A DNA stretch of 64,000 nt from Candidatus Obscuribacteraceae bacterium (GTDB taxonomy: Bacteria > Cyanobacteriota > Vampirovibrionia > Obscuribacterales > Obscuribacteraceae), in the NCBI GenBank assembly GCA_044226015.1, contig JBGAHS010000001.1:832001-896000 (forward strand). The letters are read 5' to 3'. Positions 6,999-12,265 of the stretch are shown here, in pieces. The notes beneath the pieces are model-generated. The model saw only the letters and a program-made list of their open reading frames with translations, had not been told where the DNA came from and searched no databases. How positions within the stretch are numbered: the stretch's first letter is position 1; every line of letters begins with the position of its first letter. Both the position numbers and the translations under genes were made by a program.

Positions 6999-7784
6999 CT
7001 ACTGTCCGCTAGATTTCACTGACTCAAACGCAACTTCGTAGGCTGGTCGGTCTTCAATGTGACAGCGTACTTCGTCTCTTTTCTTGATTGCTTTGGCAGG
7101 AACTCCTGCCATGACCATATTCGGCTGAACGTTGTGAGTGACTACGGATGCGCCTGCTATTACGGCTCCGGTGCCAACTCTAACACGAGGAAGAATAAGT
7201 ACTTTTGCACCAACTGTCACGTTGGCTTCAAGATATGGACCTTCACGCCCTTTCTGGCAAGGCGGATGCATGCTATCCACGGTGCAAGACATCGGGTAAA
7301 AATGGACATTGTCTTCAGTCTTAGTGAATGTAGCGATAAACACATTGTTGTGGAAGCGGCAATTGTTGCCGACTTCGATGTGTCCATCTGACTGTGACAT
7401 TGTGCCGAAACTGCAGCCGTCTCCGAAAACACTATTCTCTCTTATGCAAGCCCGGTGTCCGGTTTGAAACCCTTTTCCGAATTTGCAGCTGGCGTAAATA
7501 ATTGTGCCACTGCGTATAGTGCTATGCTCAGAGATAATAGTCTCTGGGTTGTTGTAGTTAGGGTCACGAAACCCAGCTAGCCTCTCACCCAGAATGCACT
7601 GAGCGCCGACAAAGCAGTTTGGTCCAATCTTGACGTTTTCGTAGATGACCACGCCTGGCTCGATGATGCAGTTGTCGCCAATTTCTGCACCATCCATGAT
7701 GATTGCATCGTCGTAAATTCTACAGTTTTGTCCAATTTTGGCTTTGCTGGAGATGCGACTACAAGACGATTGGCTCTCAGGCAT
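6999..7784 (-). CDS. Hexapeptide-repeat (left-handed beta-helix) sugar N-acyltransferase
   Basis: Repeated hexapeptides (IGQNC, IGDNC, IGPNC) and C-terminal GAVIAGASVVTHNV...GVPAK; directly follows the DegT aminotransferase. Confidence 0.85.
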   Translation of the reverse strand: MPESQSSCSRISSKAKIGQNCRIYDDAIIMDGAEIGDNCIIEPGVVIYENVKIGPNCFVGAQCILGERLAGFRDPNYNNPETIISEHSTIRSGTIIYASCKFGKGFQTGHRACIRENSVFGDGCSFGTMSQSDGHIEVGNNCRFHNNVFIATFTKTEDNVHFYPMSCTVDSMHPPCQKGREGPYLEANVTVGAKVLILPRVRVGTGAVIAGASVVTHNVQPNMVMAGVPAKAIKKRDEVRCHIEDRPAYEVAFESVKSSGQ

Positions 7785-7802
7785 AAATTATTCTCTTTAG
7801 TT

Positions 7803-9023
7803 TTAGAAGCCGACGAACGGTGTTGCCACTGCTGCCGGTGTGGCGGCACCAAGCTTGCTCACCATGATTTCGGTAATGGCTTTGGATACTCTCTTAACTT
7901 GTTCTTGCTTAAGTTCAGGATACATCGGCAAGGACAATACTTGAGCTGCGAGTTTTTCTGAAATCGGGAAGTCGCCTTTGCTATATCCGAATTCTGCAAA
8001 AGCATCTTGCATATGCAGAGGTACAGGGTAATAGCACATGCTGCTGATTCCACGCTTATTGAGTTCTGCTCCCAATGCGTCACGCAGAGCTGCATCGTCA
8101 GCATGGTTGCTGCTGCCGCTGGAGACTTTTATCGTGTATTGGTGCCATACGTGAGTGTTGCCACTCATCACTGTTGGCAGAGTCACACCAGGACAGTGTT
8201 TTAGTTCTTCCTGATACCACTTCGCTACTTGATTGCGTTGAGTGTTCCAATCTGCCAGAAATGGCAGTTTGGCAAGCAATACTGCAGCTTGAATTTCATC
8301 TAAACGGCTGTTTCTACCAATTTCATCATGGTAGTAGCGTTTGCGCATGCCGTGAGCACGAATTGCGCGCAGCTTGTCTGCTAGCTCATCATCATTAGTA
8401 GTGATCATGCCAGCGTCACCTGCAGCTCCCAAGTTTTTTGTTGGATAGAAACTTATGCAAGCCATATCGCCTAAGCTGCCTGTTCGTTGCCCATTTTGAG
8501 TGGCACCGATCGCTTGCGCGTTGTCTTCAATAACTCTTACTCCATAACGAGTTGCGAGTTCGAGTATCTTTGCCATCGGGGCTGGCTGCCCATATAAGTG
8601 AACTGGCAATATTGCTTTCGTTTTCTTATTGAAGAGCTTTTCGATGTTATCCGGGTTCATGTTGAATGTGTTCGGATCTACATCAGTAAAAACTGGTTTT
8701 GCACCGCGGGTCGCAATCGCTTCTGCTGTAGCTGCAAAAGTGAATGGAGGTGTGATTACTTCATCTCCAGGACCAACTCCTGCTGCCCATAGTGCTAGCT
8801 CGAGAGCGTCAGTACCATTGGCCACCGCTATTGCGTGCTTAGCGCCGCAGAATTTGGCGATATCTTTCTCTAGCTGACTTACATATTGACCAAGAATATA
8901 GTGTCCGCTGCGCAATATATTGATGACTGTTTCTTCGAGCTGCGGACCGAACTGTTTATATTGTTCTTTGAGGTCGAGGATTTGAATTGGTTGGTTTGCA
9001 GTTTCTTCTACCAAGGTTTCCAC
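7803..9023 (-). CDS. DegT/DnrJ/EryC1/StrS PLP-dependent nucleotide-sugar aminotransferase
   Basis: ANGTDAL, PVHLYGQ, IEDNAQA, SFYPTKNLGAAGDAG, NSRLDEIQAA; GTG start with GGCAGGA RBS. Confidence 0.95.
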   Translation of the reverse strand: METLVEETANQPIQILDLKEQYKQFGPQLEETVINILRSGHYILGQYVSQLEKDIAKFCGAKHAIAVANGTDALELALWAAGVGPGDEVITPPFTFAATAEAIATRGAKPVFTDVDPNTFNMNPDNIEKLFNKKTKAILPVHLYGQPAPMAKILELATRYGVRVIEDNAQAIGATQNGQRTGSLGDMACISFYPTKNLGAAGDAGMITTNDDELADKLRAIRAHGMRKRYYHDEIGRNSRLDEIQAAVLLAKLPFLADWNTQRNQVAKWYQEELKHCPGVTLPTVMSGNTHVWHQYTIKVSSGSSNHADDAALRDALGAELNKRGISSMCYYPVPLHMQDAFAEFGYSKGDFPISEKLAAQVLSLPMYPELKQEQVKRVSKAITEIMVSKLGAATPAAVATPFVGF

Positions 9024-9329
9024 TCCTGCCGGTCTTACTTGTCTCCTGACTCGAGGTTTCAGAGACGCTGCAAGTCTAGTACGGCAGTTGGCATGTCTCC
9101 AAGTAGCAGCTTATAAGGTTGGCAACTCCTAAGAATGTAAACAAGAACTTCATAGCGCTGCTGTCGCTTGACATGGTTGGCTGTTGCTTAAAGGGTGAGG
9201 GTTTGAGATTGCGGGTGTTGTCAGTGGAAAGAAATTGCTGTCGCACCTAAAAATAAACTTACAGCAGTTTGATGAAACAGTTTTTTATCAGTATCTCTTT
9301 GAAAGTATATCTGTATTATAGGCTTAAGA

Positions 9330-9741
9330 TGGTCTTTGTTTAATCCTGGCTACAAGTGATTCCGGCTTCGTCTACTTGCCACTTTATGACGGCAATGGCA
9401 GATGCGCTGTTCGGTTTTCTTCTAAGTTTACAGCGAACTATGGTGGCGTATTTGGTGGCAGGACTATGTGGGAAAGCAGCTGCAAAACTCAGTCTCTTTC
9501 TCTACAGTTTCAATCCTGCTTCAGTTTCGCTAAGACCTTCGCGCAGAGCCTAGCGCGAGAATCCTGAATTTCGCCGGCCGGATATCAAAGACCTGCTCTT
9601 CTAGCGGACCTTTGGAAAACGAGGGGGGGCTGCCATCCCCGACATGATTCGCCATTGGCGGTCACATCGGCCCTCGTTTCCAGATCCGCACTATTGGCCT
9701 GATCCAGAGATGACTGCATCAGCTTCGCTGACTGCAATCAC
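9330..9741 (-). ncRNA. Candidate large structured non-coding RNA (family not recognised; 3' end uncertain)
   Basis: Starts just downstream of a TTGACA-17-CATACT promoter. At least six hand-identified helices in which the minus strand has G-U pairs where the plus strand would have A-C mismatches. No convincing ORF. Confidence 0.5.
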
Positions 9742-9745
9742 TTAA

Positions 9746-9774
9746 AGTATGCCATACAAATGTATGTTTGTCAA
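9746..9774 (-). promoter_or_regulatory. Sigma70-type promoter with palindromic operator-like site in the spacer
   Basis: Minus strand: TTGACA (9774-9769), 17 bp, TGn-CATACT (9751-9746); perfect inverted repeat CATACA-aa-TGTATG at 9753-9766. Confidence 0.65.
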
Positions 9775-9787
9775 TCAATTTATATAT

Positions 9788-9977
9788 TGGGTGGGGCGGC
9801 AGGGGGCCAGAACCGGAACCATGGGCGGGGCGGCACCGGATTCGAAACCGGAACCATGGGCGGGGCGGCACCGGATTCAGAACCGGAACCATGGGTGGGG
9901 CGGCACCAGATTCAGAACCGGAACCATGGGCGGGGCGGCACCAGATTCGAGACCGGAACCATGGGTGGGGCGGCACC
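9788..9977. repeat. 35-bp GC-rich tandem repeat, 5 units (last truncated) plus a degenerate leading half-unit
   Basis: Unit ACCGGAACCATGGGYGGGGCGGCACCRGATTC(GAA/AGA/GAG) starts at 9812, 9847, 9882, 9917, 9952; no spacers. Confidence 0.95.
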
Positions 9978-10032
9978 GCCTCCTTCATGGCAAGGGGGCA
10001 AAGTCAGAAACCCTTGCTATGTAATGTTTTAG

Positions 10033-10064
10033 CAAAAGAAAAAGCCCCTCCGAAGAGGGGCTTT
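10033..10064 (-). terminator. Intrinsic terminator of the HicB-like gene
   Basis: AAAGCCCCTC stem with TTCG loop on the minus strand, running into a T-rich tract. Confidence 0.85.
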
Positions 10065-10087
10065 GAACATCCTTGCCGTTGCTTTAA

Positions 10088-10384
10088 TTACTTTCTCTTG
10101 CCGCCAGGAACAGCAACTGTTCTCGACAGAGCGTTCGTAACGAACAGATTGAGGCTGACGCCTTCTTTTTCAGCTCTGTCAACGAGTGCTTGGTGTAGAG
10201 AGCGGGGAAGACGAACTGTGAACTTACCGCTGTAATCAAGGTATTGTTCGTCCGAGCGTGGTGCGCGAGCTGGTGCTTTAGCCGGCTTTGGAGCTGGCTT
10301 ACGAGCTGGAACTGACTTTTTGAGAGCTGATTTGAGTTTTGCCGCTTTGCTAGCTGGCTTTTTTGCTTTAGCTTTTGTAGCCAT
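10088..10384 (-). CDS. HicB-family ribbon-helix-helix DNA-binding protein with Lys/Ala/Pro-rich N-terminal tail
   Basis: C-terminal YSGKFTVRLPRSLHQALVDRAEKEGVSLNLFVTNALS matches the HicB-type RHH domain; strong AAGGAG RBS; own terminator. Confidence 0.85.
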   Translation of the reverse strand: MATKAKAKKPASKAAKLKSALKKSVPARKPAPKPAKAPARAPRSDEQYLDYSGKFTVRLPRSLHQALVDRAEKEGVSLNLFVTNALSRTVAVPGGKRK

Positions 10385-10581
10385 GTTGTTCTCCTTATCC
10401 GAACCTACTTGTATTAATTCCGGTTACCTGGTGCCTACTAGCTGCCTGGCAGCCGGGCTCGTGCACTGGACCCTCAGGTTTTGCCGAAGGGCAAAACCAC
10501 CTCCGAAAGCACCAAGGTGCCTTCTGGAGAAATTATGTGATCTTGCCACCTAATACCACCTTAGGTGGCATGATCATTCTA
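10385..10581 (-). promoter_or_regulatory. Extended -10 promoter, long inverted repeat and multi-hairpin 5' leader of the RHH gene
   Basis: TGtTAGAAT on the minus strand (TAGAAT at 10581-10576); IR TGATCt-TGCCACCTAA-n7-TTAGGTGGCA-tGATCA at 10538-10576; hairpins at 10501-10529, 10477-10498, 10441-10453. Confidence 0.55.
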
Positions 10582-10664
10582 ACAGAACTTATACCCTAGA
10601 GATCTTTTGGATATGCATTAATATCTTTCCTGGTGCACCTCGAGAATGCTAAGCTGTCTAGGGT

Positions 10665-10703
10665 TTCGAAACCGGCACCAGCAGTGGGGCGCACCGGTTT
10701 TGA
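10665..10703. repeat. Degenerate single copy of the 35-bp repeat unit (REP-like hairpin)
   Basis: TTCGAAACCGGCACCAGCAGTGGGGCG-CACCGGTTTTGA aligns with array sequence TTCGAAACCGGAACCATGGGCGGGGCGGCACCGGATTCAG. Confidence 0.65.
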
Positions 10704-10761
10704 TGGCTGGTATCACGGGCGACACTTAGCATTAATTTAGAAAATTAAGGCGGAAATTCTT

Positions 10762-11868
10762 TTGAAAGTATTGATTATCAGGCTCAGCGCTATGGGAGAT
10801 ATAGTCCACGGACTACCTGCTGCTGCTTTGCTGAAAGAAAGACTGCCTGGGCTTGAGCTGAGCTGGCTTGTAGAACCCGCTGGAGTGCCTTTGCTGGAGG
10901 GAAACCCAGCTGTGGATAGGGTAATCGTTTTTCCCAAAAAGAAGTGGTTGCAGCAACTACGTACGGTGTCAAGGCTCTATGCCACCGCCGCTGAGGCTAA
11001 GACTTGGGCTTCCGAACTGAAGACCCTTCAATTTGATGCAGCTATTGACTTTCAAGGATTGTTGAAAAGTTCTGTCCTTGGCCTCGTATCTGGTGCCAGA
11101 AAGAGATTCGGATTTCAAGGCACCAGGGAAGGTGCGGATAAGTTCTTGACGCATCGGCTTGATGTTGGCGATTACTTTAGCCCTGAAACCCATGTGGTAG
11201 AGCACAATTTGCGTCTTGCCGATTTCGCAGCTCGTGTCTTACTTGGGCAAACTGAAAGCTCAGCTGATCAATCCTATATATATGAAGCAAAGTTCCCCCT
11301 ACCGGCACCATCGGCGACGTCGTTAGAAACGCTTAAACTGAATGCGGGGCAGTCTTTTGAAGCATTTCTTTCCCGACCAGGGCAGCGGCGCTTTGCCTTT
11401 ATCCCTGGTACCACTTGGACAACAAAAATTTGGGACTGGCAAAAGTGGGCCGAGCTTGCGGAAATGTGTTCGGAGACGACTCGTTTGCCCTTACTACTCT
11501 TGGGCGGTCCATCTGAATTGGAAATGAATCAGCATATCGCTGATAGGCTCGGAAGCAGAGTTCTCAATTTGACCGGAAAAACCGATATTCCGATGTTGCT
11601 TGAACTTTTCCGGCATGTTGATACCGTTATTGGTGCAGATACAGGACCTTTGCACCTGGCTGCTGCTGTTGGCATGCCTCAGGTGCTGGCAGTCTTTGGA
11701 AGCACTCCGTATAAAAGGAATGGACCCTACGGAGCTCACTGTTGTTCTGTTGCATTGAATCTGGAGTGCCAGCCCTGTTTCAAAAAGGTCTGTCCCTTGG
11801 GAACGCTAGCGTGCTTAAAAGAGCTAAGTGCCAAGCAGGTCTTTGCTGCAATACCTGAAGAGTCTTGA
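10762..11868 (+). CDS. GT9 ADP-heptose:LPS heptosyltransferase (WaaC/WaaF-like)
   Basis: KVLIIRLSAMGDIVH, AIDFQGLLKS, NLTGKT, GADTGPLHLAAA, C-terminal CQPCFKKVCP. Confidence 0.92.
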   Translation: MKVLIIRLSAMGDIVHGLPAAALLKERLPGLELSWLVEPAGVPLLEGNPAVDRVIVFPKKKWLQQLRTVSRLYATAAEAKTWASELKTLQFDAAIDFQGLLKSSVLGLVSGARKRFGFQGTREGADKFLTHRLDVGDYFSPETHVVEHNLRLADFAARVLLGQTESSADQSYIYEAKFPLPAPSATSLETLKLNAGQSFEAFLSRPGQRRFAFIPGTTWTTKIWDWQKWAELAEMCSETTRLPLLLLGGPSELEMNQHIADRLGSRVLNLTGKTDIPMLLELFRHVDTVIGADTGPLHLAAAVGMPQVLAVFGSTPYKRNGPYGAHCCSVALNLECQPCFKKVCPLGTLACLKELSAKQVFAAIPEES

Positions 11869-12265
11869 ACCGTCTGAGAATATTCTTATCTTTGCCGCGC
11901 CCGGGATATTGCTTCAATCGACATTGCCTTAAGTTCGTAGAGTCTGGCAGATTCAAATTATTCTCCACTCCAGGACTTCGAGCTCCGTCCGATAAAGCGT
12001 AAATTACAGCACTGACTCTATTTGCACACGCAAAATAGTGACTGATATTGCTACTTGCAGATTTGGATCACTTAGTTTGATCAAGGTACGTCTCATTTCT
12101 ATCTCTTCAATTAATTCACCATTTCAGATAGCACAGCACTTTCTTTTTTTTAATGATGGTATCGTATACGGTATCGATGATTCAGATCAGAGCAAATCAA
12201 GCTGTTGGGCTTAAGTCTGGAGTGCAAAAAGCGAGAAAATCCCTTTGGCGAAAATCGCCTTGAGC

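Follow-up and report, generated by a model that had tools for sequence, protein, structure and literature searches.

The intergenic region between a hicB-family gene (10088-10384) and a DegT-family aminotransferase gene that heads a sugar-modification operon raises the question of whether its minus strand encodes a structured RNA and, if so, what that RNA might do. The region lies within a window of 64,000 nucleotides (G000:C11:832001-896000, where G000 is the genome under study), and a sequence-only reading of it had proposed a non-coding RNA of ~400 nt with its own promoter and joined ends or, alternatively, a very long leader of the sugar operon. Our results suggest that the locus holds one member of a real, covarying and apparently undescribed multicopy family of RNA genes under predicted LexA control, with a structured gene of ~170 nt (Table 1). 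Since the same locus occurs in a second strain, sequenced in a different study (run X2; a contig spanning 7500-9641 with 8 differences, plus a piece covering 9617-9771), the RNA locus is no assembly artefact; in that strain, a change at 9648 gives the variable hairpin one extra pair. Metatranscriptome runs X8 and X17, searched against 7500-12000, gave no contig over the RNA and covered only 4 and 9 of 30 bins, respectively, mostly with sequence of other organisms. The neighboring hicB-family gene has a long Lys/Ala-rich N-terminus, occupies the same position in six genomes of the same genus, and has no hicA that could be seen alongside. As for the tandem array upstream of the promoter, arrays were not enriched beside RNA copies (near 3/10 copies vs. 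18% of 1309 intergenic gaps, with 1210 arrays genome-wide in G000). The hicB-degT spacers of G002 and G006 also contain arrays, which look unrelated to the one in the window.

All sequence strings listed in the sequence-only reading were present at their positions, including the promoter (TTGACA at 9774-9769, CATACT at 9751-9746, and a TG upstream; 10/12 match), the 5' hairpin at 9740-9711 and the ~130-nt rod at 9707-9578. Taken alone, the promoter is within chance (3 found vs. 3.2 expected in the region); its significance comes from retention in all ten paralogues described below, across which promoter and box show 3 changes in 160 positions. When 17 copies were compared, the first paired base lay no more than 7 nt from the predicted start. 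Compared with shuffled sequences, the entire 406 nt folded better than expected (z -3.95 on the minus strand, -3.22 on the plus), and this signal was confined to the 5' part, i.e., 9740-9574 (z -3.76 minus, -2.13 plus). The four 3' hairpins that had been described are there as sequence, but 9573-9340 folds no better than shuffles (z -0.49 minus, -0.42 plus). Among 18 sliding 80-nt windows in this 3' part, 9520-9441 of the minus strand was the sole one to stand out (z -3.1), as a local hairpin of unique sequence that lies outside the family and has no homologue; the 3' half also had no translated match in its own genome below E 0.07. The 8-bp repeat supposed to join the two ends is present (9743-9736 / 9361-9354) at a frequency of 0.5-2% in simple shuffles, a figure to be read with the caveat that the 3' end had been picked after the repeat was seen. 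Its 5' arm overlaps the 5' hairpin and begins upstream of the predicted transcription start, and paralogue similarity ends some 200 bases short of its 3' arm, so that joined ends are unsupported. With the family ending near 9574, an independently promoted structured RNA is upheld as a predicted non-coding RNA that belongs to no Rfam family, but its length and its closure are not. Also passed over in the sequence-only reading were the operator palindrome, the GGGG/CCCC hairpin by which a three-way junction is formed, the palindrome CCGGCCGG, and nine further copies.

Table 1. Features of the RNA gene and its surroundings (window positions; strand "." denotes a feature listed for neither strand).
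Feature	Position	Strand	Remarks
Terminator of hicB-family gene	10064-10041		Between hicB-family gene and tandem array
35-bp tandem array, 4.9 copies	9808-9978	.	Between hicB terminator and RNA promoter
-35 hexamer TTGACA	9769-9774	-	Left edge of paralogue similarity; TTGAC unchanged in 10/10 copies
CATAC-N4-GTATG, 14-bp palindrome, predicted LexA (SOS) box	9753-9766	.	Between -35 and -10; right half overlaps extended -10 TG
-10 hexamer CATACT	9746-9751	-
5' hairpin	9711-9740	-	Begins at predicted start (~9740); sequence and length vary among copies
Predicted 5' strand of irregular lower helix and internal loop	9690-9707	-	Pairing register varies by copy
Conserved core	9604-9689	-	Rod opened by GCGG/CCGC, three-way junction
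Variable hairpin of core	9668-9641	-	Absent from short variants
GGGG/CCCC hairpin of core	9640-9626	-
3' strand of internal loop (6 nt, pyrimidine-A first) and lower helix, then U-rich stretch	9582-9603	-	Probable 3'-end region, 3' end inferred; no terminator called
CCGGCCGG palindrome	9574-9581	.	Near right edge of paralogue similarity; in 10/10 copies of G000
3' part of interval first proposed	9340-9573	-	Unique sequence; outside family past first 10-35 bases
Promoter-like element of degT operon, distinct from RNA gene	9073-9102	-	Conserved in 7/7 orthologous loci

BLAST and nhmmer searches of the interval against its own genome revealed nine paralogues of the RNA gene. Every match covered the promoter and the initial ~190 bases, and no match extended to the 3' half; exactly the same ten copies were recovered with a covariance model built on the core. 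All share one order of parts: TTGAC, CATAC-N4-GTATG, the -10 box, a 5' hairpin of free sequence, the lower helix with its internal loop, the GCGG/CCGC rod, the three-way junction, and CCGGCCGG. The ten copies are 58-86% identical over promoter and RNA, all are intact, none are near-identical, and no decayed copy was found in G000; spacer and flank bases match those of the nearest copy at only 31-69%. In an alignment of 21 copies, 93% of 743 cells were paired and 24/37 pairs displayed compensatory, two-sided change (0/500 shuffles scored as high and slid controls were 44-54% paired), although these values overstate covariation, since the alignment was fitted to the model and the sequences are related. 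An unfitted MAFFT/RNAalifold alignment of ten copies gave two-sided change at 13/35 pairs, and between nearest copies 42/68 differing pairs remained paired, vs. about 40% expected for one random change. The four G-C pairs of the GCGG/CCGC opening are invariant and so receive no support from covariation. The minus-strand preference noted before, i.e., G-U pairs where the plus strand would have A-C mismatches, was borne out for the family core (102 G-U vs. 11 A-C cells).

Three rounds of covariance models identified 25 copies in 7/104 family genomes and 4/37 genera (G000, 10; G007, 6; G002, 4; G087, 2; and G025, G028, and G091, 1 each); because the models include sequences that they then score, scores of the included copies are not independent. 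By these models, the RNA family is absent from 5/7 other genomes of the same genus, one of which carries another RNA under the same promoter. In copies outside the genus the variable hairpin is missing, and in relatives the CCGGCCGG palindrome lies at a variable distance or is altered in sequence. Weak matches in G019 and G020, from a looser pass over 40 genomes, were inside coding sequence and were dropped. A pattern search of the contig collection returned 87 loci, at least six of them real (five among the 80 scored with the model), all from Obscuribacterales or Obscuribacteraceae. The family had no match in viral contigs, in phages or plasmids, in the 100 scored of 106 metagenome loci, or among 120 genomes that belong to other families of the class. 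An isolated 3' RNA fragment with the palindrome but without 5' half or promoter was observed in G007 (contig C5, L360).

The palindrome between the -35 and -10 hexamers, CATAC-N4-GTATG, occurs in 10/10 copies of G000 and is very likely the family's LexA box, as judged from sequence, since it also fronts lexA (G000:C1:697528-698214), imuA-imuB-dnaE2, ssb, and ku, as well as nrdB. Seven of the 11 exact matches to it in G000 are at RNA copies, and with up to one mismatch it precedes the genes just named, a DinG-like helicase gene, and a PD-(D/E)XK nuclease gene; recA of G000 has no box. Upstream of lexA, a box with no more than one mismatch was present at 30/30 loci (from 56 genomes with a lexA match), compared with 0/30 in control stretches inside lexA. 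The promoter-plus-box pattern was found in 67/104 genomes, vs. a handful of matches for a reversed-pattern control, and 38/48 exact matches in fetched loci precede imuA, imuB, or dnaE2, according to a crude classing by motif. This agrees with the persistent control that LexA exerts over the imuA-imuB-dnaE2 cassette and with the overlap of LexA boxes and the polymerase site, as described in PMC3323433. A matrix scan of G000 ranked two RNA copies first and placed 8/10 copies among 21 intergenic matches, with a matrix trained on relatives' cassette promoters and six non-RNA sites of G000; the two missing copies had been filtered as lying inside long chance ORFs or below score. Part of the conservation belongs to the promoter, since the right half of the box doubles as the extended -10. 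Across the family, the box is present with no more than one mismatch in 18/25 copies, four copies of relatives have 2-3 mismatches, and three copies in genus g51 have instead a shared, different upstream element. Short variants in G087 and G091 (L374, L375, L376) share a ~60-base upstream element without a LexA box, which suggests another regulator. Compared to the cyanobacterial LexA box, AGTACWNWTGTACT, as given in PMC3091678, the predicted box has the same 14-bp palindromic geometry, 4-base spacer and inner TAC/GTA but differs in its outer bases, CA...TG, in these non-photosynthetic Obscuribacteraceae. The predicted regulon of G000 also includes a Rv2578c-like radical SAM gene, and weak box sites occur near two Rpn-family genes, sbcC, and a XerD-like recombinase gene. 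A one-mismatch box was also seen at C2:51427, within an island (L046, G000:C2:48000-55000) that encodes a transposase-like ORF, a 540-aa deaminase-domain protein, and further ORFs.

We tentatively favor, at somewhat less than even confidence, the reading that the gene encodes an SOS-induced, protein-binding sibling RNA that has been duplicated as a block. LexA would bind the palindrome and block RNA polymerase, and the ~170-nt RNA would be made after DNA damage, its 5' hairpin protecting the transcript. The RNA would act in trans and bind a protein by way of its unvarying GC helix, the internal loop next to it, and the GGGG/CCCC hairpin. Its long imperfect duplex would be a scaffold or decoy for some protein at work during the SOS state, and Ku, SSB, LigD, and ImuA/B, which are co-regulated, are candidate partners. 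Recognition by a protein is favored since the letters that never vary are found within helices rather than single strands, and there is no common single-stranded seed. New copies could arise as promoter-plus-RNA blocks at unrelated spacers and be kept because dosage is useful. Promoters and folds have stayed intact along long, separate branches, which argues for selection on each resident copy. Several findings count against this reading, among them the boxless recA and the mismatched or missing boxes of some relatives' copies. Presence in just 7/104 family genomes, and absence by these models from 5/7 others of the genus, is odd for a useful regulator. Moreover, the copies group by genome, closer to their paralogues than to copies of other species, and have neither synteny nor a common neighborhood, the opposite of csrB genes, which are generally closer to their syntenic orthologues in the account of PMC6262261.

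A distinctly possible, if doubtful, alternative is that the stretch from the -35 box to just past CCGGCCGG is a non-autonomous mobile cassette switched by SOS, in which an enzyme encoded at another site would use the fold of the RNA or of single-stranded DNA as its substrate or guide. It stays close behind the favored reading because of the scatter, patchiness, and per-lineage expansion of the copies. The expansions are lineage-specific, with the ten G000 copies forming one group in the tree and the nearest copy lying in the same genome for 17/21 copies. For 9/11 relatives' copies the flanks could be mapped to G000, and all lie elsewhere than the G000 copies, no closer than 43 kb to any of them or on copy-free contigs. 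Six genomes of the genus keep the hicB-degT order, and RNA, box, and palindrome are absent from the spacer in 6/6 (220-395 bases long in four and 625-964 in the two with tandem arrays, compared with 1064 in G000). Similarity among paralogues begins at or shortly before TTGAC, often sharply at TTGAC between close ones, and mostly ends 0-35 bases past the right-end palindrome, which itself stands at a variable distance from the core; G-T pairs would suit single-stranded DNA as well. One spacer holds the C8 copy in G000 and, in reverse orientation, a different RNA behind an SOS promoter in G003. That genome lacks the family and has four copies of this different ~150-nt rod RNA behind the same -35/box/-10 promoter (L379, L382, L383, L384). 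Against mobility, no target duplication or terminal inverted repeat rose above mismatched-flank controls among 19 copies (own flanks 5.0 and 5.2 vs. 5.3 and 5.1, an indirect test, since the element ends are inferred), TnpB (PF07282) and Y1 transposase (PF01797) were absent from 5/5 carriers, and IS110 transposase (PF02371) was missing from 2/4 carriers searched. There is also no near-identical pair and no decayed copy in G000 (a single 3' fragment occurs in G007); copying by way of RNA cannot include a promoter that lies upstream of the start; and the viral contigs, phages, and plasmids searched were negative. It is unlikely, in our estimate, that we are dealing with an SOS-switched, protein-free element of a new kind, in which host repair functions would copy the promoter-plus-RNA cassette into further intergenic sites when DNA is damaged (through Ku-LigD together with the retron-type reverse transcriptase, or through some other enzyme acting in trans), sister lineages having different rod RNAs behind the same promoter.

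The remaining explanations concern RNAs that pair, encode, act as a polymerase decoy, or regulate in cis. A family of base-pairing sRNAs acting on mRNAs in the SOS state through a common seed has a precedent in the LexA-controlled, trans-acting DinR (PMC10907235), and the loop word GGGGATGG and the palindrome are indeed in 10/10 G000 copies; we nevertheless hold it to be quite improbable, as both words lie mostly in paired positions, other genomes have a different loop, and an exact-match test found complements near the start codons of only 1-12 of 6401 ORFs, several of these being spurious ORFs overlapping copies. It is very improbable that the transcript is an mRNA for a small SOS-induced peptide, i.e., a TisB/DinQ-like type I toxin: in 6/10 G000 copies a frame of 10-11 codons begins with an AUG located in the loop of the small hairpin, but the frame is broken in 4/10, the AUG is missing from most relatives' copies, and no frame with a ribosome-binding site was common to 17 copies, nor are the peptides hydrophobic. 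A 6S-like decoy of RNA polymerase, specialized for SOS, would account for a rod with an A-rich internal loop. This too has very little probability, given that RF00013 matches no copy, that the short variants keep little helix above the loop, and that a separate weak 6S candidate (L041, G000:C6:800550-800755) is single-copy and found in 4/5 relatives; it scores 23 bits, below threshold, and is 77-79% identical in three same-genus genomes. Least tenable is the leader of the sugar-modification operon proposed at the outset. The RNA is on the same strand as degT, 551 bases upstream, but since degT has its own conserved promoter and the RNA is absent from 6/6 orthologous loci, the hicB-degT RNA is almost certainly no such leader; elsewhere, 7/10 copies face a convergent gene, the three co-oriented downstream genes are unrelated, and no gene neighborhood is common to the copies.

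Identity with well-known structured RNAs, already doubted from sequence inspection, was not found: at the gathering score, Rfam had no match in the window (best in the interval, 17 bits; best over the ten copies, 18.4 bits), and the families unmatched include RNase P, tmRNA, SRP, 6S, Y RNA, HEARO, and CsrB/Rsm. ARAGORN reported nothing, and the SRP RNA is located elsewhere. 6S RNA is usually present in one or two copies and matches RF00013, whereas here there are ten copies and no such match. The Ro60/TROVE gene that might accompany a Y RNA had no match in the genome (92% complete). Likeness to the SRP symmetric loop and to the tRNA acceptor/T-arm, judged by eye, was limited to single copies. 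HDV-like ribozymes form a nested pseudoknot; by eye, the strand pairing with the 3' tail lies only a few bases before the rod and leaves no room for one.

MITEs, IS200/IS605 derivatives with omega RNA, IS110 bridge RNAs, and attC cassettes are short, structured, intergenic, dispersed, patchy, and expanded per lineage. The same may be said of the present family, but no terminal repeats, target duplication, or cognate enzyme were found, and each copy appears intact, its promoter complete. An IS110 bridge RNA comes with a recombinase encoded in or alongside its element; the element here contains no ORF, and PF02371 was found in 2/4 carriers searched. attC sites have conserved R-box triplets, which are not conserved in our alignment, and the one recombinase scored, near a weak box, is XerD-like and below the integron cut-off. 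Retron msr-msd RNAs are structured, similar in size to this RNA, and adjacent to a reverse transcriptase gene; in G000, the ku-ligD genes, which have an SOS box, are followed by a gene for a retron-type reverse transcriptase. We rejected a retron ncRNA, as the enzyme has its own canonical-looking leader and occurs in 49/104 genomes, mostly without this RNA, and as the RNA has no conserved msr hairpin and is not adjacent to the reverse transcriptase gene. That locus (G000:C4:64318-69463; L043, L314, L388) comprises ku, a LigD primase-polymerase gene, and the reverse transcriptase gene (292 aa, YCDD, VTG); the msr/msd-like leader is conserved, no effector is evident alongside, and homologues are often behind ligD.

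To our knowledge, few stand-alone, non-coding members of the SOS response have been described, and among those we found no ten-copy covarying rod. The literature search found no paper combining LexA, Melainabacteria, and SOS and nothing on such an RNA for Obscuribacter or Vampirovibrionia; supplementary tables of RNA-motif screens (e.g., PMC8040213, PMC10690425) could contain the motif. The loci tisB, dinQ, and symE belong to the SOS regulon and encode peptides with antisense partners. DinR of Klebsiella (PMC10907235) and MTS1082/MTS2823 of Mycobacterium (PMC3381160) resemble the present RNA in being LexA-controlled non-coding or small-RNA members of the SOS regulon. DinR, as reported there, is released by cleavage from the 3' end of an mRNA and forms pairs with ftsZ (PMC10907235). 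In contrast to DinR and to the tisB/dinQ/symE loci, the RNA described here is a stand-alone, multicopy, covarying rod without conserved reading frame or seed. In G000, the two highest-scoring boxes both belong to promoters of the RNA, and in four species of one genus there are 4-10 RNA genes of this sort, at sites unrelated to one another. Two readings can be put to the test: after DNA damage, cells need a protein-binding RNA in large amounts, or a minimal element is spreading by an undescribed route. As a by-product, the analysis provides a predicted LexA box and regulon for Obscuribacteraceae, non-photosynthetic relatives of cyanobacteria. Among sibling sRNAs, the Csr/Rsm RNAs carry many short hairpins with GGA loops, compared with the single small conserved hairpin with a variable loop seen here, and Yfr2 is a further family of this type. 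With CsrB/Rsm, Qrr, csRNA, and LhrC, as presented in PMC4211561 and PMC6262261, the family has in common that one genome carries several related ncRNA genes, every one of them under a promoter of its own, and that a regulator site is shared. It differs from them in its ten copies, its LexA-type box, the one long rod in place of repeated short loops, and the lack of an Rfam match. We regard the family as sibling RNAs in kind, less than half the size first proposed, with dynamics resembling those of a mobile element.
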